Of a stretch of 64,000 nt of DNA, positions 33,833-46,885 are shown piece by piece (within the stretch, counting starts at the first letter, position 1; the number at the start of each line of letters is the position of its first letter). The position numbers were made by a program, and so were the translations under genes. The notes under the pieces were generated by a model. That model was given only the letters and a program-made list of their open reading frames with translations. It had not been told where the DNA came from and ran no database searches. Where the stretch lies: positions 2,199-66,198 of the forward strand of contig CAILTG010000055.1 of assembly GCA_903837125.1 (NCBI GenBank). The letters run 5' to 3'. The stretch is from Candidatus Magasanikiibacteriota bacterium. Its GTDB lineage: Bacteria > Patescibacteriota > Patescibacteriia > Magasanikbacterales > UBA922.

Positions 33833-33920
33833 TGGCGGAGAGGGCGGGATTCGAACCCGCGAGGGGTTGCCCCCTGCAGCTTTAGCAAAGCTGGACGATA
33901 GACCGCTCTGACACCTCTCC
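33833..33920 (-). tRNA. tRNA-Ser (anticodon GCT), CCA encoded
   Basis: Acceptor GGAGAGG/CCTCTCC, anticodon stem CAGCT/AGCTG with loop TTGCTAA, a long variable arm (CAGGGGGCAACCCCTC), T arm GCGGG-TTCGAAT-CCCGC, and 3' GCCA. Confidence 0.85.
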
Positions 33921-34007
33921 ATTTACAACATACAAAATACACATAATAAAATACAAAATACATAAAAAAATTGTATATTACTCCATGTACATTGTATTTC
34001 ATTTTTG

Positions 34008-34094
34008 CGGAGAGAGTGGGATTTGAACCCACGGAGGACTTTCATCCTCAACAGTTTTCAAGACTGTCGCCTTAAACCACTCAGCCATCTCTCC
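34008..34094 (-). tRNA. tRNA-Ser (anticodon TGA)
   Basis: Acceptor GGAGAGA/TCTCTCC, anticodon stem ACAGT/ACTGT with loop CTTGAAA, long variable arm, T arm GTGGG-TTCAAAT-CCCAC. Confidence 0.85.
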
Positions 34095-34237: not shown

Positions 34238-36382
34238 TTAGTTGGTGTATTTTAAATGATTAATTACTGCCCTAATCTCGCCATAACTTACCTCTTCGCC
34301 CAGGACCTCTTTTAAAGGAGTCAATAAATAGTGACCGTATTTTTTAATGGCAGAAACAATTTGGGGAATTTTGTCTTCTGAAACAAGTTCAGTTACTTTT
34401 AACTTGCCGCTCTGGATGTAAAAAGCCAGATGACTTTCAATGGTTGCCGGACTTAACCCACGAATTGTGGCAATTTCCAAAATTGTTTTTTTATCTTTAA
34501 AAAGATTATAAGAAATAATTTTAGTATCAGTTTCTACTACACGTTCTGCTTTGGTACGGCGCTCACGCTTAGGAATTTTTTCGGAAATTCTGGAGGCTAA
34601 TTGGTGCTTTGTACAATAGGTAGTAACAACTTTAAGAAAAGGTTGTCCATATTTGGCAAGTTTAACCTCACCAAAACCGGAAATCTTTTTAATATCTTCC
34701 TCAGTTTGCGGTAAATAAGTTGCCAATTCCAGTAAGGTGGCATCGGAAAAAATAATATATGAAGGAACATTTTCTTGTCGCGCCCAATTGTTGCGAACAA
34801 TCTTAAGTTCATTAAATAATTCTTTTTCATAAGGCTTTTCGGAAAAAGAAATTTCTTTTTTAGAAATAGTTTTAACTAGAAAAACTGACTCTTTTCCTTG
34901 AAGTACTGCTGGACTTTTCTCCGTTAGAGCTAAAATAGGATATTCGCTGCCTGTCTGTTTTAAATACCCCAGCGAAATTAAATCTTGAAAATATCTAAAC
35001 CAGTCATCTTTGGAAATATCACCACCAATACCATAAGTTGTTAAATTTTTATGTACCTCTTTTATTTTCTCTGATTTAGAACCGCGTAAAAAATCAATCA
35101 CATAAGTGAGACCAAATCGACTCTCCAATCTGGCAACAGCTGAAAGAGCTTTTTGGGCAATAATAGTGCCATCAAATTTTTCACGGCTACTAAGACAGCT
35201 ATCACAACTTCCGCAAACATCAGGCGCTTCTTCGCCAAAATAATTAAGTATGGTTTTACGACGGCAAGTGTTGGACTCGCATAATGAGGCCATTTGGGAA
35301 AGTTTACGGAGCATAATGCGTGATTGTTCCGGATTACCTTCCACCATGGCAAACTTTTTAAGTTTAATAACATCACCGCCACTATAATATAAAATCGCCT
35401 CGCTCTTTAGTCCATCACGTCCCGCCCGGCCGGTTTCTTGATAATAACTTTCAATATTTTTAGGCAAGTCAGCATGAATCACAAAACGCACATTAGATTT
35501 ATTAATCCCCATGCCAAAAGCAATGGTGGCCACAATAATTTTAACTTCATCTTTGACAAATAGATCTTGATTTTTTTTACGACATTCATTGGTTAAGCCG
35601 GCGTGGTAAGGCACAGCCGAAAAACCGTCGTGTGTAAGTTTTTGAGCCAAGGTTTCGGTTGAATTACGGGATAATACATAAATAATTCCTGAATCATCGT
35701 GGTGTGTTTCAAGATAAGTCGTTAATTCATCATACATTCCGCGCTTGGGTAAAATATTATAATGAATATTGGGCCGATTGAAACTAGAAATAAAAACTCG
35801 TGCTTGATTAAGCTGTAATTTATTTAAAATATCATCACGAGTAAGTTTGTCTGCAGTCGCAGTTAGGGCAACAATCGGCACAGCAGGAAATTCTTTTTTA
35901 AGAGATGAAAGCATTCGGTACTCTGGACGGAAATCATGGCCCCAATGAGAAATACAATGAGCTTCATCAATGGCAAACAAAGCCACTCTTAAACTTTTTA
36001 AAAAAAACATAAACTGTTCGTTGTTGTTAAACAACCGCTCTGGAGCAATATAAAGCAGTTTAAGTTCACCGCGTTTAAGTTCATTATAAACCTCAGAAGA
36101 CTCTTCTGAACTTAAAGAAGAATTTAAATAAGAGGCTTTAATTCCGTTTATTCGCAATGCATCAACTTGGTCTTTCATTAGGGCAATTAAAGGTGAAATA
36201 ACCACAGTTAAGCCAGGAAATATCAACGCTGGTATTTGATAACAAAGAGACTTGCCTCCACCGGTTGGCATTAACACAAAAGCATCCTGCTGTCGCAAAA
36301 TGGTATTGATAATTTCTTCCTGATTAAAGCGAAATGACTGATAACCAAACTTGTCTTTAAGAATTTGTATTGGTGTGAACAT
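34238..36382 (-). CDS. recQ: ATP-dependent DNA helicase RecQ (with C-terminal extension)
   Basis: Helicase motifs I (LMPTGGGKSLCYQIPA), II (DEAH: AIDEAHCISHWGHDFRPEY) and the rest. It has the RecQ Zn-binding Cys cluster (CRRKTILNYFGEE...CGSCDSC), plus a winged-helix domain and an extra C-terminal domain. Confidence 0.85.
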   Translation of the reverse strand: MFTPIQILKDKFGYQSFRFNQEEIINTILRQQDAFVLMPTGGGKSLCYQIPALIFPGLTVVISPLIALMKDQVDALRINGIKASYLNSSLSSEESSEVYNELKRGELKLLYIAPERLFNNNEQFMFFLKSLRVALFAIDEAHCISHWGHDFRPEYRMLSSLKKEFPAVPIVALTATADKLTRDDILNKLQLNQARVFISSFNRPNIHYNILPKRGMYDELTTYLETHHDDSGIIYVLSRNSTETLAQKLTHDGFSAVPYHAGLTNECRKKNQDLFVKDEVKIIVATIAFGMGINKSNVRFVIHADLPKNIESYYQETGRAGRDGLKSEAILYYSGGDVIKLKKFAMVEGNPEQSRIMLRKLSQMASLCESNTCRRKTILNYFGEEAPDVCGSCDSCLSSREKFDGTIIAQKALSAVARLESRFGLTYVIDFLRGSKSEKIKEVHKNLTTYGIGGDISKDDWFRYFQDLISLGYLKQTGSEYPILALTEKSPAVLQGKESVFLVKTISKKEISFSEKPYEKELFNELKIVRNNWARQENVPSYIIFSDATLLELATYLPQTEEDIKKISGFGEVKLAKYGQPFLKVVTTYCTKHQLASRISEKIPKRERRTKAERVVETDTKIISYNLFKDKKTILEIATIRGLSPATIESHLAFYIQSGKLKVTELVSEDKIPQIVSAIKKYGHYLLTPLKEVLGEEVSYGEIRAVINHLKYTN

Positions 36383-36468: not shown

Positions 36469-36497
36469 TTGACTTGACACATCAAATATAGTAAAAT
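36469..36497 (+). promoter_or_regulatory. Promoter for the plus-strand tRNA (TTGACT-N17-TAAAAT)
   Basis: TTGACT at 36469-36474, a 17-nt spacer, TAAAAT at 36492-36497. The tRNA begins 15 nt downstream. Confidence 0.4.
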
Positions 36498-36511
36498 ATT
36501 TTTAACATATT

Positions 36512-36598
36512 GGAGAGATGGCCGAGTGGTTTAAGGCAGCAGTTTACTAAACTGCCGTCCCTTCACAGGGACCGAGGGTTCGAATCCCTCCCTCTCCG
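36512..36598 (+). tRNA. Class II (long-variable-arm) tRNA-Ser-like gene with an atypical anticodon loop TTACTAA (anticodon ACT by standard numbering)
   Basis: The body is near-identical at the 5' end to tRNA-Ser(TGA): GGAGAGATGGCCGAGTGGTTTAAGGC. The anticodon stem is GCAGT/ACTGC. The loop TTACTAA is the Ser(GCT) loop with G34 changed to A. It has a long variable arm and T arm GAGGG-TTCGAAT-CCCTC. Confidence 0.65.
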
Positions 36599-36602
36599 CA
36601 TA

Positions 36603-36640
36603 ACAAAATATACCAGATTTATCTGGTATATTTTGTTGTA
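36603..36640 (+). terminator. Perfect 15-bp hairpin after the tRNA (terminator-like)
   Basis: AACAAAATATACCAG-atttat-CTGGTATATTTTGTT followed by a T-rich run. Confidence 0.5.
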
Positions 36641-36724: not shown

Positions 36725-36753
36725 TTGCTAAAAACAAAATCAGGAGATATAAT
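36725..36753 (+). promoter_or_regulatory. Promoter TTGCTA-N17-TATAAT for the 455-aa gene
   Basis: TTGCTA at 36725-36730 and TATAAT at 36748-36753. It lies inside the ORF-track's N-terminal extension, so the true start is downstream. Confidence 0.4.
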
Positions 36754-36808
36754 ATTAAGTACCAATTTTACAAATCTACAATATTTTTATTCAACTGATT
36801 ATATCTAT

Positions 36809-38176
36809 ATGAGAGAAGGAAGTCGTCATGAAAAAGGACCTGAACGGCAAAAAAGAAAATCACCTGTTTCAGAAAATATAGTTAAAAACCATCCAAAAGG
36901 AAATAGCGGCTTTTTAAAAAGAAACCTTCTTAGAGGTAGCTTAGCTTTAATTTTAGGAACAGGAGCCGTGGCAGGATATGAACGATTTACAGGAGGAGAA
37001 GGAGAAGAAGAAGAAACGCCCAAAATTATACTTGATGATTACCCAAAACCTACACCAAATCCTGCTTTCGCAGAAATATCTCCCAAACGAGAAATAGAAA
37101 AAGTGGAACCAGTCGCAGCAATAAAACTTATTTTAACCGAGTACAACTCCTGGTTGGATAATCTTAACGTAGACGACATTCCGAATATAGATGGCATAGC
37201 AAAATTTGTTGAAATTTATAATCAATACATAAAATATTTAAAAACTGATAAACCATTAGCTCAACTTTCACTCAAGGAATTTAACAAAACCGGCAATCCT
37301 GATAAATTTTTCCAACAATTAGAACCAATAAAAAAACTTCTAGAAAAAAACGGGTATTACTTTCGAGCTACACCCACCCTCGGTCAGTGGAAAGGAGAAG
37401 AATTAAATTTCATGATGGTACTAACTGGTAAAATACAAAGCCAGGAACAAAAAACAATTGAACGCCGAGGGAAAAAAGCCAAATATCAACATATTATTGT
37501 GGTAATCCCTCCTGGTGAAACAGAGGAAAATTACCGAAGTGCGCCATCATGGGCCACGGCTTTGACCTATAATGAAAATGGGGGGACCACTGTTATGCAA
37601 AATGAAGCTGGTTATGCTAAATCAGCTGAAATAATCTACAGTACCTTAAAAAGAAACCCCCAAACACTAAAAGAGCAAGCAGTACACGCTGCATTTAGTT
37701 GCTATGACAAAGGCGACCGTGCGAGTACCACTCAGGCTATTAAAGAAGTATTAATGTCCACCTCTCTTTCACATGAGGAGCAACATGTCCTTGACGGACA
37801 TGGAGAAGACACTCTTATGACTCAAGAAACCATGCCAAAATACATGATAATTGAATTGCGAGGCATTTTAGCGCCACTAACTGGGCCAAACCCAAGAGCG
37901 GCTTTAGAAAACATCTTCAACTGGTCCATAGCTCAAGAAGCAACTAGACGTTCAATAGGAGAAATGACGCTTGCTGTTCTCAAAGATCTAGCCATGAAAG
38001 AACCAATTAAAATATTTTCTGAAAATGACGATCAAATCCGATTATTGGGCGAGAAAGCCCTGCAAATTTCGGATCTTTATTTTCACCGCGTAATTGAACA
38101 AAATAAACCGATAACAGATGTAGAAAGTGAAAATGAATATGGTGATCTTCTTGATAAACTAAAAGATAAATTATGA
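36809..38176 (+). CDS. Hypothetical membrane-anchored/secreted protein (455 aa from ATG 36809)
   Basis: MREGSRHEKGPERQKRK... followed by one hydrophobic segment (LLRGSLALILGTGAVAGY). No known motif. Its stop overlaps the next gene's start in ATGA (translational coupling). Confidence 0.5.
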   Translation: MREGSRHEKGPERQKRKSPVSENIVKNHPKGNSGFLKRNLLRGSLALILGTGAVAGYERFTGGEGEEEETPKIILDDYPKPTPNPAFAEISPKREIEKVEPVAAIKLILTEYNSWLDNLNVDDIPNIDGIAKFVEIYNQYIKYLKTDKPLAQLSLKEFNKTGNPDKFFQQLEPIKKLLEKNGYYFRATPTLGQWKGEELNFMMVLTGKIQSQEQKTIERRGKKAKYQHIIVVIPPGETEENYRSAPSWATALTYNENGGTTVMQNEAGYAKSAEIIYSTLKRNPQTLKEQAVHAAFSCYDKGDRASTTQAIKEVLMSTSLSHEEQHVLDGHGEDTLMTQETMPKYMIIELRGILAPLTGPNPRAALENIFNWSIAQEATRRSIGEMTLAVLKDLAMKEPIKIFSENDDQIRLLGEKALQISDLYFHRVIEQNKPITDVESENEYGDLLDKLKDKL

Positions 38177-39750
38177 AACGTCTTCTCCCAATTCTCATCT
38201 TAATCCTTAGTTTTGCCAGCATTATTTTTATTCTAAGCCATACTTTGGATCCTGACTCTGGCTGGCACTTACGTTTTGGTCAAGCTGCCATTCAAGGCCA
38301 TTTTTCTTATACTGATACTTACACCTACACTTTTTTTGGCCAAAATTGGGTCAATCATGAATGGGGTGGCGATATATTGTTTTGGTTAATTTACAGCCAC
38401 TTTGGTTATGTAGGACTTATGATATTGACCGGAGTAGCCGTGTGGTTGTCACTATTTTTAATTCAATATTTATTTCAAAAAAGAATTACCATTATTTTTG
38501 CGCTGGTTCATTTAAGCTCAGTCTGGATTTTGTTACGTTTTTACTCCGTGAGAATAACCATGATGGCTATAATCTTCCCAGTTTTATTAATTATTATTTT
38601 GGAAAAAATTCAAGTACGACCTAAGATTATTTGGCTAACTTTACCACTTTTTTGGTTATGGTCAATTATGCACGGCAGTTGGATTTTAGGTTACATAATC
38701 ATCAATATTTATCTTTTTGCCAACCTCGGCCTAATACTTATCAATCGTTATTTTCCGCGTTGGCCTTATCTTAAAGATTATTGGCAAACTAAAATTATTA
38801 AACAAATTATTTTAGTACAAATTTTTTCAGCAATATTAATCTGTCTTAATCCTTATGGGCCAAAACTATGGCTGGAAATAATTAATTATTTTTCGCAAAG
38901 TTATTTTAAACAATTTACTTTAGAATGGATACCAAGCTATACCTACCCTGTTTACATCATACCTTTAATCACCGCCACCCTTGCCGCAGTAATTATTTTA
39001 GTAAATTTTAAAAATAAAAAAATATCTCTGCCACAACTCCTCTTATTTTTTGCTTTTTTCTACGCTGCTTGGGAATACCGACGCAATAACACTTATCTGG
39101 TCATTATCTGCGCGCCCATTCTTACTCTTTGTCTGGAAAATGGCTGGGCCACAATCAAAAAAACCTTATTTAAAAATAACTTGCGAACTAACAATCTTAT
39201 TTTGTATCCTGCCGGCTTGTTGGCTATTTTATTTATTATTTTGTTAATTGCTCAAACTAGTTTTGCCAGTGATAAATTTATTGATGCCCGCGTTCTTTCA
39301 CAATCCACCTACCCTTTGGCTGCTGTAAATTTTTTACAACAACAACTTGGCGACAAACCAACAAATATTTTTAATGAATTTGGCTGGGGTGGCTACTTAA
39401 TTTGGCGCCTACCACAAGCTAAAGTGTATTTTGACGGACGAGGCACGGCTACTTGGACGTACCCAGGCACTAATGAACCAATGCTCAAACATTATCGTGA
39501 ACTTAAATTTTTGCCCGGAGGATTAGCTGAGATTGAAAAAAGCCCAGCCGAATGGATAATTCTAGAAAGAAGCTATTCCGGATATTCCACCACACCAGAC
39601 ACTTTCAACCGCCTGATGTTTGGGGAAGATAATTTACAAAAAGTTTTGGACAATTCTGCCCCACCTCTGATAGTTGATTTGGAAAAAAGTTCTAATTGGA
39701 AAAAAGTTTACGAGGATTATCTAGCCACGATTTGGCAACGAAAATCGTAA
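38173..39750 (+). CDS. Polytopic integral membrane protein (10 or more predicted TM helices plus a C-terminal soluble domain), possibly a GT-C-type glycosyltransferase
   Basis: 525 aa and highly hydrophobic with aromatic-rich loops. The GT-C assignment rests on topology only. Confidence 0.45.
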   Translation: MKRLLPILILILSFASIIFILSHTLDPDSGWHLRFGQAAIQGHFSYTDTYTYTFFGQNWVNHEWGGDILFWLIYSHFGYVGLMILTGVAVWLSLFLIQYLFQKRITIIFALVHLSSVWILLRFYSVRITMMAIIFPVLLIIILEKIQVRPKIIWLTLPLFWLWSIMHGSWILGYIIINIYLFANLGLILINRYFPRWPYLKDYWQTKIIKQIILVQIFSAILICLNPYGPKLWLEIINYFSQSYFKQFTLEWIPSYTYPVYIIPLITATLAAVIILVNFKNKKISLPQLLLFFAFFYAAWEYRRNNTYLVIICAPILTLCLENGWATIKKTLFKNNLRTNNLILYPAGLLAILFIILLIAQTSFASDKFIDARVLSQSTYPLAAVNFLQQQLGDKPTNIFNEFGWGGYLIWRLPQAKVYFDGRGTATWTYPGTNEPMLKHYRELKFLPGGLAEIEKSPAEWIILERSYSGYSTTPDTFNRLMFGEDNLQKVLDNSAPPLIVDLEKSSNWKKVYEDYLATIWQRKS

Positions 39751-39797: not shown

Positions 39798-40499
39798 CTA
39801 CATTCCTCTCGCCAAAGTAAAACCAACCACTTCTCTCACGCCCGCTAGCCGCAAAACTTTGGCACACTCATTCATGGTGCTACCGGTAGTAAAAACATCA
39901 TCCACTAAAATTATTTTTTTACCAGCTAATAATTTATTCTCTAACAATTCAAAAGCACCCGCCACATTTTTTATTCTGGCTTCGCGACTTAATTTTGCCT
40001 GTTGATGAGTATAAACAATCCTTTTTAAAACTAAAGCTACCGGAAGTTTAAGCTCGTGCCCCAACTGACGAGCGATAATCTCTGCTTGATTAAAACCTCG
40101 TTCAGCATAACGCCGAGCATGCAAGGGCACGGGTACGATTAAATCCATATTTTTTAATAACTCACTATTTTTTCCAACAAAAATCTTTATTAAATCTTCA
40201 AAAACTAATTTTAACTCCTCTAAATAATTATATTTAAAATCAGTAATAATTTTACCAGCTAATAAATTTTCGCTGTACGGTAATAGGGAAATCTGCGCGG
40301 AGAGTGGAGAAAATCTAGAACACGAATCACAACAAACTCCTCCAACCACTCGCCGCCTACAACGCGGACAACAAAAGACCCCCACGGGGTCTATTTTTTT
40401 AAAACATTTTGTACAAACCAATTTGCCCTCTTCACTACAACCCAAACAATAAACAGGAAAAATACAATCTTTTATTTCTGCTATCAACCTTTTTAGCAT
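39798..40499 (-). CDS. comF: ComF/GntX family protein (double zinc ribbon plus phosphoribosyltransferase domain)
   Basis: N-terminal Cys clusters (CLGCSEEGKLVCTKC ... CCPRCRRR...CCDSC) and a PRTase motif KKIILVDDVFTTGSTMNE. Confidence 0.7.
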   Translation of the reverse strand: MLKRLIAEIKDCIFPVYCLGCSEEGKLVCTKCFKKIDPVGVFCCPRCRRRVVGGVCCDSCSRFSPLSAQISLLPYSENLLAGKIITDFKYNYLEELKLVFEDLIKIFVGKNSELLKNMDLIVPVPLHARRYAERGFNQAEIIARQLGHELKLPVALVLKRIVYTHQQAKLSREARIKNVAGAFELLENKLLAGKKIILVDDVFTTGSTMNECAKVLRLAGVREVVGFTLARGM

Positions 40500-40505
40500 A
40501 AATTC

Positions 40506-40600
40506 TCAATTTACAATTTACAATTTTCAATGAATTTACAATTTTCAATTACCAATTAGTGTATTGAAAATTTATTGTAAATTGAAAATTGATTATTGTA
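40506..40600. repeat. Intergenic array of direct and inverted copies of TTACAATTTTCAAT, including a 26-bp segment identical to 63122-63147
   Basis: tcaatttacaatttacaattttcaat-gaatttacaattttcaattacc ... attgaaaatttattgtaaattgaaaattgattattgtaaa. Confidence 0.7.
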
Positions 40601-40608
40601 AATTTTTT

Positions 40609-41187
40609 TTACTTGTTCCAATAAAATCCACTAACTTTCCAATCTGCTCCGGCACGAACCAATTCTACTCTACCAGATCTATAGTAAGTCTGGCTTGAAG
40701 TAGCAGTTTCATCAATTATTTGTGTATCCACCAAAACTGTAGCTTTCTCAGTTTCAAAACTTGTTACTGAACTGGATATTACTTTGGTTTCTCGACCCTG
40801 ATAAACAGAATTTTGCGGCACAGCTTGGGTTTTAAGCCACTTAACCACCTCGGGTGTAGCCATTAGTAATACGTCAGCTAAATGAGCATTATTGTTTTGA
40901 TTGGAATAACTGCCAAACCGTTCTACAAAAATTTGGGCCACCTGTTTGGCATAAAGTTCGTCTGGTGCAGTTCTGGTTGGAACAATAGGTTGAATTGGCC
41001 CCTGATTTTGATTAACAGCTTGTTGGGTAGCACCTGTTTCCTGTTGTTCTACTTTATTTCCAATAGTAGGAATATTTAATTTAATAATTCCCGGCTTAAA
41101 AACAAACAAATATAATAATAGTGAAACTATAATTAAACCGGCTACAATTCCTGTTCCTAAAAAAATTCGTTTTCTTAAATCCAACAT
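40609..41187 (-). CDS. Bitopic membrane protein (N-terminal TM plus extracytoplasmic domain), possibly a VirB8/TcpC-like T4SS component
   Basis: 192 aa. It has a TM helix IFLGTGIVAGLIIVSLLLYLFVF. The soluble domain is of a size and hydrophobic-core pattern compatible with an NTF2-like fold, and its position is last in the T4SS-like operon. The assignment is tentative. Confidence 0.35.
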   Translation of the reverse strand: MLDLRKRIFLGTGIVAGLIIVSLLLYLFVFKPGIIKLNIPTIGNKVEQQETGATQQAVNQNQGPIQPIVPTRTAPDELYAKQVAQIFVERFGSYSNQNNNAHLADVLLMATPEVVKWLKTQAVPQNSVYQGRETKVISSSVTSFETEKATVLVDTQIIDETATSSQTYYRSGRVELVRAGADWKVSGFYWNK

Positions 41188-41210
41188 ACAATTAACACTT
41201 AAACGATAAG

Positions 41211-43103
41211 TTATGTTTCACTTTTCGGTTCAGCTCCTCCCATTTGTTCTTCATATTCTTTCTTAGCTTTTTCTATATCTAATAACTGTTGAGGATTAGT
41301 AGTAACTAATTGATCTTCAGTATAAGAGGCTACCACCTTGATGGCGGCATGTTTTAAACCGGCAAAGAAAATCCCCTCGCCCACTGCAGTTTCCAGTAAT
41401 AAATACTTCTCTCCTTCAGTCAACATAAAAGTTTTCTGTACCATTTCAATAGCCGCCGGCGACTGACGTAGGAGTAATTGCAAAGCAGAATTAGTAACAA
41501 TTGCCTGGCCGTATTGAGAACGTAAAAAATCATTCACGTCTTGGGTGATCGTGGTTACTCCCAAATAATACTTGCGACAACGTTTTACCAAAGCATAAAT
41601 AAATTTGGCACTATCTTCATTGGTCATTAGCCACCAGGCCTCATCAATAATCATAATTCTCTTTTTTCTTTCACTACGCACCACATTCCAAATATAATTA
41701 ACTAAAGTATAAATAGCCATGGGCCGCAATTCATCTTCTAAATCACGCACCGAAAACACCACCAATTGATTACTCATGTTGACATTGGTAGGTGAATTAA
41801 ACAGCCCTGAGAAAGTACCAATGGTAAATTTGCTTAATTTTAAAACCAAATTTTCTGCCCCCTGCATTCCTTCCAAAACTTCTTGCAAATCCTGCATAAT
41901 CGGCGCCTCTACTGTCGTTAAATCAGCATTGGCAGTAATATCTTTTTTAGCAAAAGTTTCCAACAAGGCCTTGTCCATAAGTGAATCTTCTTGAGAGGTA
42001 AGCGTGTTGAACATGATTCTAATTAACCCTTTTAAAGTAATTACGGCACTTCTAATAATATCCTCGGTGGATACTTGCTGGCCAACTGGACGAGGCAAAT
42101 CAAAAGGATTTACTTTTGATTCTGAAGCCAAAGAAATATTAACATAAGTGCCGCCCACTGCTTCACAAAGATGCAAATATTCCATTTCCGGATCAATAAT
42201 AATAATATCAGTGCCCATCATTAAAGTACGTAAAACTTCTAATTTAACGGCATACGATTTTCCCGAACCAGCCGTGGCAAACACCACCATATTGGCATTT
42301 TGTAAAGAAAAACGATCAAATAAAATAAGACTATTATTGTGGCGATTAATACCATATAATACTCCATCATCACTAGTCAATTCTGAAGAAATAAAAGGAA
42401 AAGAAGAAGCAATAGGCGAAGAATTCATGTTGAAAGAAACCGTAAGTTCATCAATACCAAGTGGCAGAGTTGAATTAAAACCCTGTTCAGCCTGAAATAA
42501 AACATGCTTACTATAAATTAATTTACTGCCAAAAATATTTTCCACATCTTCGGTTATTTTATTCAATTCTTCTAAATTCTTGGAATATAAAGTTACATAA
42601 AAAGAAAATTGAAAAAAATGTTCTACCCCTTGGGTTAAATCATCGCGCAGTTGTTCAATATCTCTGAGGGCTGTTTCACGTAAAGGATCACGAGCCGCGC
42701 CTTTTTCAGTATCTGAACTAATTTGAGCTTCTAGCGCTCCTACTTTTTTCTTTAACTGTTTGAGAATTATTTCAGCATTTACCGGATAAAAAAACATGGA
42801 AATATCCATGGTAATATTTAAATTCAAAATCGGCGAACTCCAACCAACGGCAATATACCGAGGATAAGTTATTACATAAATGGTCCGCAAAAAAATATCT
42901 CCCAATTGAATATAATTTGATTCAACTCTAAAAGCCGAAGGAGCAATCAAATCCTTAATAGCCACCGTGCCTTCCCGATAAAGCTGCTCTTCTTTTAAAG
43001 TAGTTATTTCCTCTTCTATTTTTTTATTTCGCAACCTATCCTCTGCTACCTGTCCGGCCAAAGCACCACGGGCTTTTTTAATTGTAGCTGGCTTAAAAGC
43101 CAT
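41211..43103 (-). CDS. VirB4/TraE-family type IV secretion ATPase (Gram-positive-size variant)
   Basis: 630 aa. Walker A VVFATAGSGKSYAV, NPFDL motif (SKVNPFDLP), Walker B RIMIIDEAWWLM, and C-terminal GVTTITQDVNDF, which are the hallmarks of VirB4/CagE/TraE AAA_10 ATPases. Confidence 0.7.
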   Translation of the reverse strand: MAFKPATIKKARGALAGQVAEDRLRNKKIEEEITTLKEEQLYREGTVAIKDLIAPSAFRVESNYIQLGDIFLRTIYVITYPRYIAVGWSSPILNLNITMDISMFFYPVNAEIILKQLKKKVGALEAQISSDTEKGAARDPLRETALRDIEQLRDDLTQGVEHFFQFSFYVTLYSKNLEELNKITEDVENIFGSKLIYSKHVLFQAEQGFNSTLPLGIDELTVSFNMNSSPIASSFPFISSELTSDDGVLYGINRHNNSLILFDRFSLQNANMVVFATAGSGKSYAVKLEVLRTLMMGTDIIIIDPEMEYLHLCEAVGGTYVNISLASESKVNPFDLPRPVGQQVSTEDIIRSAVITLKGLIRIMFNTLTSQEDSLMDKALLETFAKKDITANADLTTVEAPIMQDLQEVLEGMQGAENLVLKLSKFTIGTFSGLFNSPTNVNMSNQLVVFSVRDLEDELRPMAIYTLVNYIWNVVRSERKKRIMIIDEAWWLMTNEDSAKFIYALVKRCRKYYLGVTTITQDVNDFLRSQYGQAIVTNSALQLLLRQSPAAIEMVQKTFMLTEGEKYLLLETAVGEGIFFAGLKHAAIKVVASYTEDQLVTTNPQQLLDIEKAKKEYEEQMGGAEPKSET

Positions 43104-43132
43104 AATTGTACTAACTAAACATTAATAAATAA

Positions 43133-43831
43133 CTATTCATAATTATTTTCAATCTGCAATTGTTCAACTGCTCCCAGTCCTTCAGAAAAAGAAATATCAG
43201 GATTATAAGTTGCATAATATAATTCTATCAAAGCCTGGGTGCCTAACTCGGCAATTTCCAAACCCACACTCTGTAAACCACCAGCTACCTGCCGCACTCG
43301 GCTATCTAAATCCCCTTTTCTCTGTTTAAATCTTTCTTCTTTTAATCGAACAGTTAAGGCTGGTTTTATTACTTCTTTAAACCGCGCCCAAAAACTTTTT
43401 TTACGGTTGGACATGGGATCATAAGGAATAATCACATAAAATCTTTTAGTAACAATTTGACCCATTTCTACCAATTGTTCCACAAATGAACGATAATCGG
43501 CAATCTGAATCCTTAACAATTCATTACTTTGACTTTTTTCTGTTTCAAGTAATCGATCAAGATAAGGTTTTATTTGCAAACGCCGAGACTGAATTTGTAT
43601 CTGCAACGGAAAATCAATGCTGTTTAAAAAACCAACGTAAGCAGAAATCAGGGCCTCTTGTTCATCATCGGATTTTAAAGAAAAATTGATGCTAGAGACC
43701 ATTAAAACCGACCGCAAAGTGCCATCTTTTAAAATCACCACTCCATCTTTTATTTCCGCAATCGGCAGATAAGTTTGGGTGGCAGGTTTACTAGCAATTT
43801 TCTTTTGTGCCTTCTTAGACTTCATAAACAA
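43133..43831 (-). CDS. Hypothetical protein (232 aa) encoded immediately upstream of the VirB4-like ATPase
   Basis: No motif was recognised. There is a 29-nt gap to the ATPase gene and it is out of frame with it. Confidence 0.45.
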   Translation of the reverse strand: MFMKSKKAQKKIASKPATQTYLPIAEIKDGVVILKDGTLRSVLMVSSINFSLKSDDEQEALISAYVGFLNSIDFPLQIQIQSRRLQIKPYLDRLLETEKSQSNELLRIQIADYRSFVEQLVEMGQIVTKRFYVIIPYDPMSNRKKSFWARFKEVIKPALTVRLKEERFKQRKGDLDSRVRQVAGGLQSVGLEIAELGTQALIELYYATYNPDISFSEGLGAVEQLQIENNYE

Positions 43832-43845
43832 ATACCATTATACCA

Positions 43846-44271
43846 TTAATCTTCCGGTTTATAAAACCCACCAGTATTTACTATTAGCGCCAAATCGCGC
43901 ACATGCTCTGACTTCACTTTTTTTCTAATCTCTTTTTCCGGAATTTTTTCAACCTCCAGATTTCTAAAATAATCTAATTCTTCTTTACTATAAAACTTAC
44001 GCCAAATACGCAAAGAAGGCTTTCGTACTGTTTGTAAAATATTCAATAAAAAATAATGGAATAACTGACCATTCACTTTAACAAAAGAAAAAACTAAGGC
44101 CAAACTGCCAACTATCACTAAAACAGTAATGAATAAACTAAAATCCGCATATTTATAAGCCAAAAAAATTAATAAGCTAGCAGATAATAATATCAAAAAC
44201 TGCCGGGTGGTAATTGGCCCAAATATTTTATCTTCCACATCAATAAATTGAGGAACAACAAACTGTTGCAT
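43846..44271 (-). CDS. PrgI/TcpE-like (VirB3-like) small two-TM protein
   Basis: 141 aa. It reads IDVEDKIFGPITTRQFLILL followed by two hydrophobic helices, which resembles PrgI-family proteins of Gram-positive-type T4SS loci. It is adjacent to the VirB4-like gene. Confidence 0.5.
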   Translation of the reverse strand: MQQFVVPQFIDVEDKIFGPITTRQFLILLSASLLIFLAYKYADFSLFITVLVIVGSLALVFSFVKVNGQLFHYFLLNILQTVRKPSLRIWRKFYSKEELDYFRNLEVEKIPEKEIRKKVKSEHVRDLALIVNTGGFYKPED

Positions 44272-44275
44272 ATTT

Positions 44276-45364
44276 TCAATTGTTAAGTTGGCTGTTCACC
44301 TCTACCAGTGCGGTAAACTCAGTGGTTTTCATTTGACTACCCTGACCATTATTAGCATCCAATAAACTGGCTATTTTGGTTTTCTTTTCTAAAGCCTCTC
44401 TAATCACTCCTTGGTACTGTTTATAAAGAGGACTAACCTGCCAAGCATTAAGTGCTTCAAAAAATAACAAATATGACTCTTTTTTAAAAACAGCAAATTT
44501 GTCAGCCAAAATTTTACCTGCTTGAGATGGCTTATTACTCAAACGCCGAAAATCTGTTAAAGAAAACATTTTTAATTCTTCAATTGGCCCTACACTTCTT
44601 TTTTCAACCACCGGAGCAATCACATCATGAATTATTGGTCTGGCGGCTTGGCTGTTTATTAAAACTGTCTGATTTGGGGGTATCTCCTGGCTCTGCAATG
44701 ATTCATTAACCAAGTGGTCAAGTGGTTTAGTGGTTGGGTGGTAAGGTGGTAAGGTGCTTGAATGGTTCAGTGATTGAGTGTTCAAATTTTTAATCGCCTC
44801 AAGCAACTGTTTAGCCTGATCCTGGCTCCAACCTAAACCGCCAGAATTTTCCAACTTAAGACAATATTCAATTACTTGATCATCCGTACGCACATCTTTT
44901 AAACGCGAAACCACTAAAGGACGAAGTCGTGAAAGTTGTTTATCAGTAACCGGAAATTTTATTTTTTTCATTATTCCACTAAATTCATCTTCTTTATTAC
45001 TTGGCAAAGACTCCAAATCAAAATCAGTTTCCTCCACTTTTTCTTCCAATGGTGACACCTGGTCGCCCTCTGTCCATTGTTTTATATTCGGCAAAATTTG
45101 ATCTTTCGATCTTTCGATCTTTCGATCTTTCGCCACAGCCATCGCCGCCGCTTCATCAATAAAAATATCAGTCACCGGCGTACTGGTAGCCAAAGCTTGA
45201 CTCTGCGTCTCCATTGGCAGTGCCTCAATCGGTGCTTTTGCATTCAGTTGCTCAGGTGTTGAGGTGCTCAAGTTTTCTTTATATTTTTTAAACTCATCCA
45301 TAGTCATACGAACCGACGTACCGTCGGCTTTTTTGACAAGGATAGTTGGTAATGATAAAACCAT
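44276..45364 (-). CDS. Hypothetical protein (362 aa) containing an in-frame 9-bp x4 tandem repeat
   Basis: No known motif. DNA 45100-45135 is (gatctttcg)x4, encoding ...KDRKIERSKD... Confidence 0.45.
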   Translation of the reverse strand: MVLSLPTILVKKADGTSVRMTMDEFKKYKENLSTSTPEQLNAKAPIEALPMETQSQALATSTPVTDIFIDEAAAMAVAKDRKIERSKDQILPNIKQWTEGDQVSPLEEKVEETDFDLESLPSNKEDEFSGIMKKIKFPVTDKQLSRLRPLVVSRLKDVRTDDQVIEYCLKLENSGGLGWSQDQAKQLLEAIKNLNTQSLNHSSTLPPYHPTTKPLDHLVNESLQSQEIPPNQTVLINSQAARPIIHDVIAPVVEKRSVGPIEELKMFSLTDFRRLSNKPSQAGKILADKFAVFKKESYLLFFEALNAWQVSPLYKQYQGVIREALEKKTKIASLLDANNGQGSQMKTTEFTALVEVNSQLNN

Positions 45365-45373
45365 AAAATATTA

Positions 45374-46885
45374 TTATACAAATTTCTGATTTGGTCTGGT
45401 AGTATTCAACTTCCATTGATTATCTTTTTCTGAATAATAAATCAAAGGTCCATATTCTGGAGAAAATAATTCCTCATACAATTGACTCAAAACTAAAATA
45501 CCAGAAAAATAAGGATCTTCCTGCCAATCAGGTAAATCCATAAAGGCACAAATCAATTCCACGCGCAAAGCAAATGGACGATTAACAATTTTAAAATAAG
45601 TTTTAATATTTTCAGCAGACTCTTCATCTATTTCACCGCTAATTATTTTTTGCCAATCAAAATTCGCATCCTTTTTTAACATTTCACCCAAAATATGATG
45701 AAAATCTATTAAGTCACAGTCACGCAAATGCAAATATAAATTTAAAACACCCAATAATTTTGGCTCCAGACTTATTGGCCAACTATTCTTGGCAATCTCC
45801 GCTTTTACATAATTTTCCTGATTTGCTATTTCTAATTCATTGTTGCTTCCGGCCAAATAAGCACCAATAAATTGACCAATTGTTAGACTATCATCACCAT
45901 TCTCTTGAAAATACACAACCTCTTGGTTGGCCAACAAGCTCTCGGCCAGGGTGGCTGATTGTACCAAATATTCATCCAAAAATCTCTGATCTACTAAAAT
46001 ATTAATTAACACGCTTCGCCAAGGCGCGTTTAAGCAAAAACCTGTCCAAAAATATTTTTCAATTAAAGTTTTTCTTTCTTCAACAATAAAATCCGGAAAG
46101 CCTTTTAAAATTAAAAATACTAAACCAATAATAAATAAATAATAATCAAATTCCTGGTGCAGTTCTTTATTAAAGTTTAACTTTAATAAAAAAGACTTAG
46201 CCCAAACCTGTAGATCTGCTTCATTGCCATAAAAAGACTGACCTAAAAATCTAAGTAACGATTGCCAATCAGGTACCTGGCCATTTTTTATTTCCTCTTC
46301 TAATTCCTGCACCGTATATCTGTGCTCAGTTTGATAAAAAAGTAACAAAGAACCAACCAACAAAAATTGCTTCTGCAAATAATTATAAGAAATAAAGATT
46401 GATTTTAATGTTTCTTCAACTTTTATTGCTGTTTCTACATCCAAAACAACTAATCTAGCAACGAGTTCTTTTACAGCCTCTGTTTCCCAACCAAGGCTTG
46501 CTAATAATTTACTCCAATTTATCTCATTCGCTTCAATAATATCAGCAGTTGCGCTTTTTGGCCAAATATTTTGCAATGAATTTAAATCTAACAAAAGATT
46601 ATTCAACATTTCATTATCTATAGTATCTACACCCATTACCAAAAAAGCAATTTCAAGATCTTTACCCACTTTTTTAATACTAAATTCATCATTAACATCT
46701 TCCACTAAAAACGACAAACCGCGCCAAAAAGAATTGTATGTCCAATTACGGCCAAAAATATTTTTAGACAGTTCCGAAATATTGGACAAGACCAAAAATT
46801 TTTTGTCCCACCATTCTTCTGGATTGTTAACTATATTTTGATACATAACCAATTTATTTCTGACCGGATTAATAAAATATAACAA
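45374..46885 (-). CDS. Hypothetical protein (503 aa), likely cytoplasmic
   Basis: A long uninterrupted ORF packed 9 nt from its downstream neighbour. No recognisable motif. Confidence 0.45.
   Translation of the reverse strand: MLYFINPVRNKLVMYQNIVNNPEEWWDKKFLVLSNISELSKNIFGRNWTYNSFWRGLSFLVEDVNDEFSIKKVGKDLEIAFLVMGVDTIDNEMLNNLLLDLNSLQNIWPKSATADIIEANEINWSKLLASLGWETEAVKELVARLVVLDVETAIKVEETLKSIFISYNYLQKQFLLVGSLLLFYQTEHRYTVQELEEEIKNGQVPDWQSLLRFLGQSFYGNEADLQVWAKSFLLKLNFNKELHQEFDYYLFIIGLVFLILKGFPDFIVEERKTLIEKYFWTGFCLNAPWRSVLINILVDQRFLDEYLVQSATLAESLLANQEVVYFQENGDDSLTIGQFIGAYLAGSNNELEIANQENYVKAEIAKNSWPISLEPKLLGVLNLYLHLRDCDLIDFHHILGEMLKKDANFDWQKIISGEIDEESAENIKTYFKIVNRPFALRVELICAFMDLPDWQEDPYFSGILVLSQLYEELFSPEYGPLIYYSEKDNQWKLNTTRPNQKFV

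Follow-up and report, generated by a model that had tools for sequence, protein, structure and literature searches.

A conserved tRNA-Ser(ACU) beside a tRNA-Ser(GCU) in Candidatus Magasanikbacteria and related bacteria, with counterparts in phages

The near-absence of tRNAs with adenosine at the wobble position (A34) is an old and unresolved question, reportedly first touched by Crick in 1966. It is raised here by one gene in a stretch of 64,000 nucleotides from a Candidatus Magasanikiibacteriota bacterium (contig CAILTG010000055.1, positions 2,199 to 66,198; hereafter "the window"), a tRNA-Ser gene whose anticodon, ACT in the DNA, is complementary to the Ser codon AGT. Is this gene an error, a decaying copy, or a working tRNA, and, if it works, what does its A34 read? 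We put the probability at roughly 0.6 that it encodes a functional elongator tRNA-Ser(ACU), which would read AGU by a Watson-Crick A34-U3 pair with A34 left unmodified, while the neighboring tRNA-Ser(GCU) would cover AGC.

In the literature, anticodons that begin with A (ANN anticodons) are called universally missing from the split codon boxes, the Ser/Arg box included, phages are said to "lack the same genes", and A34 and G34 isoacceptors are held to exclude each other (PMC8007984; bioRxiv 10.64898/2026.05.15.725136). Sporadic ANN genes of every kind are present in GtRNAdb, and retention at the level of a clade is described only for tRNA-Leu(AAG) and tRNA-Thr(AGU) (bioRxiv 10.64898/2026.05.15.725136). 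An earlier reading of the window, made from the letters alone (the sequence-only reading), had stated that A34 is otherwise essentially confined in bacteria to tRNA-Arg(ACG), the substrate of the deaminase TadA, and this agrees with the literature. The literature searches turned up no publication on a natural, conserved tRNA-Ser(ACU); their only match was a trnS-ACU of sporadic occurrence, in the mitogenome of one haptophyte. Public annotation does contain individual Ser(ACT) calls; new, it appears, are the conservation across a clade in a split box, the co-existence with a G34 partner, and the frequent occurrence in phages.

Fold and conservation of the tRNA-Ser(ACU) gene

ARAGORN calls a tRNA-Ser with anticodon act at 36512-36599 on the + strand (GGAGAGATGGCCGAGTGGTTTAAGGCAGCAGTTTACTAAACTGCCGTCCCTTCACAGGGACCGAGGGTTCGAATCCCTCCCTCTCCGC), and the Rfam model RF00005 matches 36512-36598 over its full length (model positions 1-71) with 52.5 bits (E 2.1e-8), a higher score than that of the neighboring and uncontested Ser(GCT) gene (39.8 bits). 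Both programs agree with the sequence-only reading of a class II tRNA-Ser with the loop TTACTAA and the anticodon ACT, and neither yields CTA or GCT through a shifted loop. With GCAGT/ACTGC as the anticodon stem, the loop occupies 36544-36550 and the anticodon 36546-36548, so that A34 is position 36546. Two further claims of that reading are borne out by alignment: the loop is the Ser(GCT) loop with G34 replaced by A, and the 5' half is close to that of the Ser(TGA) gene at 34007-34094, with a single difference in the first 26 nt.

The tRNA has the standard 7/5 geometry, with a 7-bp acceptor stem, a 5-bp T stem, a canonical T loop and U33. An allo-tRNA or a tRNA-Sec-like serine acceptor was also considered, and is ruled out by this geometry, which is not 8/4, 9/3 or 8/5, and by the Ser anticodon. 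From identity studies in Escherichia coli, seryl-tRNA synthetase (SerRS) is known to recognize the long variable arm, G73, G2-C71/A3-U70 and C11-G24, and it does not read the anticodon. All of these elements (long variable arm, G73, G2-C71, A3-U70 and C11-G24) are found in the ACT tRNA, which has them in common with Ser(TGA) and with the canonical Ser(GCT) of the Candidate Phyla Radiation (CPR), a group of ultra-small bacteria.

The sequence-only reading had also given the gene its own TTGACT-17-TAAAAT promoter and a perfect 15-bp terminator hairpin, and each of these statements holds in part. The promoter sequence is there as a consensus match (10 of 12 positions) and as nothing beyond a match, and a second match, TTGACA-17-TATTTT, overlaps it. 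The region has no more than about a 1.6-fold excess of such sites (17 in the 3.2 kb scanned, against 10.3 expected), which makes the match weak evidence alone, and we infer a promoter function from sequence. The 15 perfect pairs exist as the core of a longer stem of 18 pairs, one of them G.U (-22 kcal/mol, z = -8.07); no canonical U-tract follows this hairpin (36600-36639) in the terminator scan, and the hairpin is a probable terminator or processing signal.

How widely A34 is shared was seen in a scan of genomes, one per species, with a pattern in which any base was allowed at position 34 while the anticodon stem and AAGGC were fixed. It returned at least 119 loci; among the matches listed, 100 carry G34 (ordinary Ser(GCT) genes from many phyla) and 17 carry A34, a lower bound (at least 17), since the pattern was swamped by the ordinary Ser(GCT) genes. 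All seven loci labeled Magasanikbacteria have A34 and none has G34, again among the matches listed. The remaining A34 loci come from a Kaiserbacteria metagenome-assembled genome (MAG), an unclassified MAG, and MAGs labeled Gammaproteobacteria or Udaeobacter. A separate route, through metagenomic relatives of the RecQ protein of the window and without any tRNA-pattern constraint, gave three further Ser(ACT) genes (L251, L254 and L258), whose anticodon arm is identical (GCAGCAGTTTACTAAACTGC). The survey of related genomes proposed in the sequence-only reading thus yields the same tRNA in at least 17 species-representative genomes and 3 metagenome contigs, that is, A34 in at least 20 independent assemblies of related organisms, and A34 is invariant over 21 sequences.

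It should be mentioned that seven contigs labeled "uncultured Gammaproteobacteria" (L052-L055, L091, L092 and L111) carry the CPR-type Ser(ACT) and have tblastn matches to proteins of the window, ranging from weak ones to an ABC-ATPase (27-30%) up to strong VirB4-like, VanW-like and comF-like ones (40-75%). Because their proteins match CPR genes of the window, these labels look wrong. For the "Udaeobacter" contig (L084), where tblastn gave no protein match, we infer a wrong label from the tRNA pair alone.

Among 13 distinct sequences, 99.1% of the stem cells of the cloverleaf are paired, and both-sided, compensatory changes occur in 13 of the 26 stem pairs, spread over the acceptor and D stems, the variable arm and the T stem. 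In 500 shuffles this covariation was never reached, and no slid control comes close. On this comparative evidence the ACT tRNA is under purifying selection. A different explanation of A34 would be that it came from an error of sequencing or assembly, or that the gene is a copy of Ser(GCT) that mutated recently and is decaying, and two features of the window copy fit this explanation. One is an A7.C66 mismatch in the acceptor stem (positions 36518 and 36592), the sole acceptor-stem non-pair among 13 orthologues, the others having A-U, G.U, G-C or U-A. The other is that the 3' half of the window tRNA has no match in metagenome contigs, so that this exact species is without independent re-assembly. 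Set against these are the A34 in at least 20 independent assemblies, the identical anticodon arm with compensatory changes elsewhere, the Rfam score above that of an accepted gene, and the promoter-like site and hairpin of the gene itself. The conserved A34 together with the covariation therefore rules out error or decay for the tRNA family, and even for the window we regard this explanation as highly improbable. Of the two fates that the sequence-only reading had offered, a functional specialized isoacceptor gains support from its conservation, from the covariation and from the GCT gene with which it is constantly paired (see below), and a recently mutated or decaying paralogue is opposed by the same three observations.

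The A7.C66 mismatch itself may be an assembly error; the simplest account of it would be a single G7A change from a G-C ancestor. Gene conversion from the GCT paralogue was considered as its source, as the 3' 28 nt of the ACT tRNA equal those of the Magasanikbacteria GCT genes. It was rejected because canonical CPR Ser(GCT) genes share that 3' end, which makes the single G7A change the simpler account.

Origin of the gene and its GCU partner

The sequence-only reading took the ACT gene for a paralogue of Ser(TGA), and here a different parent fits better. In Saccharibacteria, Parcubacteria, Sungiibacteriota, Doudnabacteria, Peregrinibacteria and Veblenbacteria there is one Ser(GCT) gene with the body of the ACT tRNA (GGAGAGGTGGCCGAGTGGTTTAAGGCAGCAGTTTGCTAAACTGCGG...); its usual neighbor is Ser(TGA), it often has Arg(GCG) next to it, and a comF-like gene often immediately precedes it. 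This canonical CPR Ser(GCU) resembles the ACT tRNA in its class II cloverleaf, its D arm, its anticodon stem (GCAGU/ACUGC), U32-U33 and A37-A38 in the loop, G73, the long variable arm and its place by comF, and 43 of the first 46 nt are identical (for example, in the Doudnabacteria gene). The common body and the common place by comF point to the ACT gene as the positional orthologue of the canonical CPR Ser(GCU) with a G34A change. The two differ in A34 instead of G34, and AGC is therefore no longer readable by a standard pair. They differ also in company: unlike the canonical lineages, the ACT lineage has a second, co-existing GCU tRNA. In other words, one codon pair is served by tRNAs with either purine at position 34, which goes against the "excluded purine" rule (PMC8007984).

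As the sequence-only reading had noted, Ser(GCT) and Ser(TGA) are both present near the ACT gene, according to ARAGORN and Rfam. Of the 17 A34 loci, 13 have a Ser(GCT) partner within 20 bp to 7 kb of the ACT gene, as does the window (14/18), and in Magasanikbacteria this partner adjoins the ACT gene. Its body in Magasanikbacteria-type genomes and in the window, GGAGAGGTGTCAGAGYGGYCNATYGT-CAGCTTTGCTAAAGCTG, is unlike that of the ACT tRNA, and its D stem is weak: U10.U25, C11-G24, A12.C/U23 (A12.C23 in the window, A-U in some relatives) and G13.U22. Despite the 39.8 bits, this body type is conserved across Magasanikbacteria-type genomes (for example, L002 41-128 and L040 662-748), and in two relatives (L259 and L261) it also bears Ser(CGA).

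The gene order in L055 and L091 is comF, ACT, GCT. Another locus, L248, is syntenic with the window (ClpP, VanW, Hsp20, RecQ, Ser-TGA, Ser-GCT, comF and VirB4) and has a canonical-type GCT gene only, with no ACT; this arrangement looks like the ancestral state. The order of events would then be that a second GCU-bearing Ser tRNA, of the other body type, arose first and that G34A followed in the canonical gene, both genes having presumably been retained since across Candidatus Magasanikbacteria and their relatives.

The reading of A34 in the CPR lineage and in phages

If the ACT tRNA is functional, it would be transcribed from its own promoter and receive its CCA afterwards. SerRS would charge it, because the Ser identity elements are intact and the anticodon is not read by this enzyme. 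A34 would stay unmodified, because the CPR is reported to be without the tRNA-Arg(ACG)/inosine system. An unmodified A34 would then read AGU with little reading of AGC, AGA or AGG, as is found for ACU anticodons in E. coli. For the clade as a whole we lean, by a small measure, toward a use of unmodified A34 in this split box, in which Magasanikbacteria-related CPR would employ ACU for AGU and GCU for AGC, which the loss of TadA and inosine would permit, with a repetition of the same change in phages.

The first support comes from the CPR tRNA set. tRNA-Arg(ACG) appears to be lacking in the CPR, and Arg(GCG) is used instead (Shulgina and Eddy, PMC8629427); in agreement with this published lack of an inosine system, Arg(GCG) occurs in 9 of the 20 other CPR loci, none of which showed an Arg(ACG). 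This Arg(GCG), an archaeal-type choice, stands close to CPR Ser tRNAs in L068, L071, L079, L090, L098, L106, L110, L118, L036 and others.

The second support comes from engineered tRNAs with the same anticodon in E. coli, namely an orthogonal Methanocaldococcus jannaschii tRNA and a Ser-tRNA with G34A, which read AGU specifically, with no inosine, low mistranslation and no fitness cost. The orthogonal tRNA(ACU) read AGU at 9.4%, AGC and AGA below detection, and AGG at 0.36%, and contained no inosine (PMC11066159), and over-expression of Ser-tRNA(ACU) led to better growth with a low estimated likelihood of mistranslation (bioRxiv 10.64898/2026.05.15.725136). These tRNAs are artificial and work in a host that contains TadA, whereas the CPR tRNA is natural and conserved.

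A conserved A34 also has natural precedents at clade level in tRNA-Thr(AGU) of Mycoplasma capricolum and in tRNA-Leu(AAG) and tRNA-Thr(AGU) of Lactobacillales (PMC3711424; bioRxiv 10.64898/2026.05.15.725136), and the A34 of the Mycoplasma tRNA-Thr(AGU) is unmodified (PMC3711424). These tRNAs serve four-codon family boxes, where misreading is harmless, and have replaced the G34 tRNA; the ACT tRNA, in contrast, serves a two-codon split box in which G34 is kept.

An alternative, with the I34 that the sequence-only reading had also considered, is a conversion of A34 into inosine (I34) by TadA or another deaminase, after which the tRNA would read AGU and AGC and potentially AGA. The gene resembles tRNA-Arg(ACG), the TadA substrate, in its encoded A34 and in the U33-A34-C35 of its UUACUAA loop; moreover, the split-box tRNA Phe-AAA is converted from A to I in E. 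coli, and TadA has broadened to Leu(AAG) in Oenococcus and Streptococcus (bioRxiv 10.64898/2026.05.15.725136). The resemblance to tRNA-Arg(ACG) stops at position 36, which is U and not the G of the U33-A34-C35-G36 type, and the ACT tRNA differs further in its split Ser/Arg box, in the presence of a G34 isoacceptor, and in a host phylum reported to be without Arg(ACG) and to use GCG (PMC8629427), as do the nine CPR loci above. Published work gives bacterial TadA a specificity for Arg(ACG) (PMC3711424), and ACU is no substrate of the E. coli enzyme (PMC11066159). Known I34 boxes lack the G34 isoacceptor (PMC8007984), yet the window and 13 of 17 related loci retain Ser(GCT). I34 would also misread AGA (275 uses in the window), which is still aligned with Arg codons, and it would make the GCU partner redundant. 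A tblastn search with an approximate E. coli TadA sequence against the window and the collected loci gave a match in a non-CPR locus only, apart from weak ones in phages (see below). No deaminase was found in the window or in the CPR loci, of which about 8 kb per genome was covered. Because Arg(ACG) is reported absent in the CPR, AGA is plainly Arg, and the G34 partner is retained, we consider inosine unlikely and the reading of AGC and AGA through I34 disfavored.

The genetic code of the window is standard. Its AGA codons align with CGN (37/84) and Lys codons in relatives, Ser being outside the six commonest aligned residues, and its AGT codons align with AGT, AGC and TCN. A recoding of AGA to Ser was thus ruled out, as AGA aligns with Arg (CGN) codons. 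AGT is the most used Ser codon (385/1274) and AGA the commonest Arg codon. The AGT share of Ser codons is 0.35 in the giant open reading frames (ORFs) of the window and 0.24 in the shorter ones, in a small sample.

Several observations weigh against an unmodified, AGU-reading elongator, besides the A7.C66 mismatch. Unmodified A34 superwobbles in some contexts (PMC3711424), and some misreading of AGR (AGA and AGG) may therefore occur. The nearest RecQ relatives (81% identity) lie on short contigs with no tRNA beside recQ. CPR with the ACT tRNA have no AGT enrichment over CPR without it beyond the general bias for T at third codon positions, and the T fraction in AGY (AGT and AGC) is not above that of the other two-codon boxes ending in pyrimidines, with or without the ACT gene. 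Lastly, the ribosomal protein genes of the window use few AGT codons, in a small sample.

Phage tRNA-Ser(ACT) genes bear on the same question. A scan of IMG/VR for any class II tRNA with the loop YTACTAA (Y, pyrimidine) gave at least 120 viral loci, and ARAGORN calls Ser(act) in 119 of the 120 listed. More than 120 viral contigs with Ser(ACT) contradict the published view of the Ser/Arg split box as one where A34 is universally missing. Cultured examples are the Rhizobium phages RHph_TM30, TM40 and Y65, in which the gene is annotated "tRNA-Ser(act)"; their proteobacterial hosts would be expected to have TadA. Two abundant viral Ser(ACT) tRNAs had no BLAST match in cultured phages, and the cultured-phage relatives that BLAST found for the window tRNA are mostly TGA or GCT tRNAs. 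Like the CPR tRNA, those of the phages are class II, with the loop YUACUAA and G73, and AGT is the commonest Ser codon in their loci too, with no signal of AGT enrichment beyond the bias for T at third positions. Unlike the CPR tRNA, they have many unrelated bodies, lie mostly inside tRNA arrays, and are almost always without Ser(GCT), which accompanies them in only 1 of the 120 listed loci; the host therefore presumably supplies GCU. In a control scan of viral loci bearing Ser(TGA), Ser(gct) was present in 22 loci and Ser(act) in 2 (L326 and L129, the latter from the earlier list), so that in this sample about 1 in 12 phage decoders of AGY is ACT.

The variety of phage bodies suggests repeated, independent G34A events, and the phage and CPR genes look convergent. 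A horizontal gain of the CPR gene from a phage array was also considered. Many viral contigs do carry Ser(ACT), and at least 3 flank-extended viral sequences have the CPR-type anticodon stem-loop CAGTTTACTAAACTG, one of them with the full GGCAGCAGTTTACTAAACTGCCG. The body of the window tRNA, however, is that of the canonical Ser(GCU) of many CPR phyla, its chromosomal neighborhood (comF, VirB4-like, ClpP and ribosomal protein genes) is conserved, and the many phage bodies are unlike it, which argues that the CPR gene is no phage import; we give this origin a slim chance.

The phage arrays (L120-L239 and L266-L384) contain other A34 tRNAs as well, namely Phe(aaa), Leu(aag), His(atg), Thr(agt) and Ser(aga), which according to reviews do not occur in phages, and many of the arrays listed also contain Ile(tat) genes. 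ORFs of zinc-dependent deaminases lie near phage Ser(ACT) tRNAs in L153 (2454-2891), L181 (1349-1879), L236 (6764-7228) and L239 (1358-2056). Their motifs (GYNG, HAExNA and PCxxCA) resemble deoxycytidine monophosphate (dCMP) deaminase more than TadA, and the weak TadA matches in phages were accordingly rejected as tRNA deaminases.

The phage arrays and the codon counts also leave room for a further explanation, that faster reading of AGU is not the main reason for which the ACT tRNA is kept. It might be a spare Ser tRNA that escapes an anticodon nuclease or toxin recognizing G34, or it might donate serine to a tRNA-dependent transferase. A role against tRNA-cleaving defenses has been proposed for phage tRNAs, and the frequency of Ser(ACT) in arrays that almost always lack Ser(GCT), together with the missing codon-usage signature of AGU specialization, would suit this explanation. 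Neither in the window nor in the related loci is a nuclease, toxin or transferase gene linked to the tRNA, and the T arm and T loop are canonical for an elongator tRNA. We therefore think it improbable, to about the same degree as inosine or a shade less so. An escape variant would, in any case, still translate, and would thus partly add to the reading of AGU by an elongator tRNA-Ser(ACU) rather than replace it.

Gene neighborhood and wider bearing

The window has a G+C content of 36%, and a Pfam scan finds in it the genes of ribosomal proteins S7, S12 and S16 and of SMC, ClpP and RecQ; a type-IV-secretion-like cluster with VirB4 and PrgI is also present. Its proteins are 40-82% identical to those of contigs of Candidatus Magasanikbacteria and related MAGs, with gene order kept (tblastn), and on these grounds the window is judged to be a chromosomal region of a CPR/Patescibacteria bacterium. 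Table 1 lists its features.

Table 1. Features of the window around the tRNA-Ser(ACT) gene
Feature	Position	Strand	Basis or remark
Giant ORF, 1830 aa	13521-19013	-	no Pfam domain
Giant ORF, 2466 aa	20061-27461	-	M48 peptidase and ABC1 kinase-like domain
Partner tRNA-Ser(GCT), divergent body, CCA encoded	33833-33920	-	ARAGORN; Rfam 39.8 bits; 13 partner genes compared
tRNA-Ser(TGA), same body type as ACT tRNA	34007-34094	-	ARAGORN, Rfam, alignment
RecQ helicase with C-terminal HTH_40 (residues 620-707)	34238-36382	-	domain scan
Sigma-70-like promoter match TTGACT-17-TAAAAT, ending 15 nt upstream of the tRNA	36469-36497	+	consensus scan, 10/12
Second, overlapping promoter match TTGACA-17-TATTTT	36474-36502	+	consensus scan
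tRNA-Ser(ACT), class II, long variable arm, G73, CCA not encoded	36512-36599	+	ARAGORN, Rfam, 12 orthologues
A/T-rich 18-bp hairpin directly 3' of the tRNA	36600-36639	+	terminator scan, RNA fold
ORF, 483 aa, between ACT tRNA and comF	36725-38176	+	no Pfam match
ORF, 525 aa, between ACT tRNA and comF, overlapping the 483-aa ORF	38173-39750	+	no Pfam match
comF-like phosphoribosyltransferase gene (synteny anchor)	39798-40499	-	Pfam Pribosyltran and DZR_2; tblastn synteny
Cluster of comF-like gene, VirB4/TraG-type ATPase, PrgI-family gene and several domain-less ORFs	39798-46885	-	type-IV-secretion or competence-like
VirB4/TraG-type ATPase (in cluster)	41211-43103	-	
PrgI-family gene (in cluster)	43846-44271	-	
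Giant ORF, 1873 aa	46911-52532	-	no Pfam domain
Giant ORF, 3220 aa	52581-62243	-	no Pfam domain

The comF/VirB4 cluster is syntenic in L055, L086, L091, L112 and L248. In relatives, the tRNA adjoins comF where the window has the 483- and 525-aa ORFs; of the 525-aa protein, L112 has a homologue (40% identity) close to its Ser tRNAs, and L052 has a fragment. The C-terminal extension of RecQ is not universal, most metagenomic relatives aligning over residues 1 to about 612 only. Three of the four giant ORFs (1830 to 3220 aa) are without any Pfam domain.

What, then, would a tRNA-Ser(ACU) of this kind mean? For genome annotation, it bears on genes that tend to be dismissed as errors, and for engineering it bears on codon reassignment in the AGN box. 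For tRNA biology, it would be a counter-example to the ban on A34 that is under selection across a bacterial lineage and has a G34 partner, accompanied by many independent examples in phages. If this is true, the view of split-box ANN anticodons as "universally missing" or prohibited, and with it the mutual exclusion of A34 and G34, would be overturned, and natural systems, cultured Rhizobium phages included, would be available for asking why A34 is avoided. With such natural tRNAs one could examine whether A34 stays unmodified, its specificity for U, the cost of misreading AGA and AGG, and whether the loss of TadA was the permissive step.

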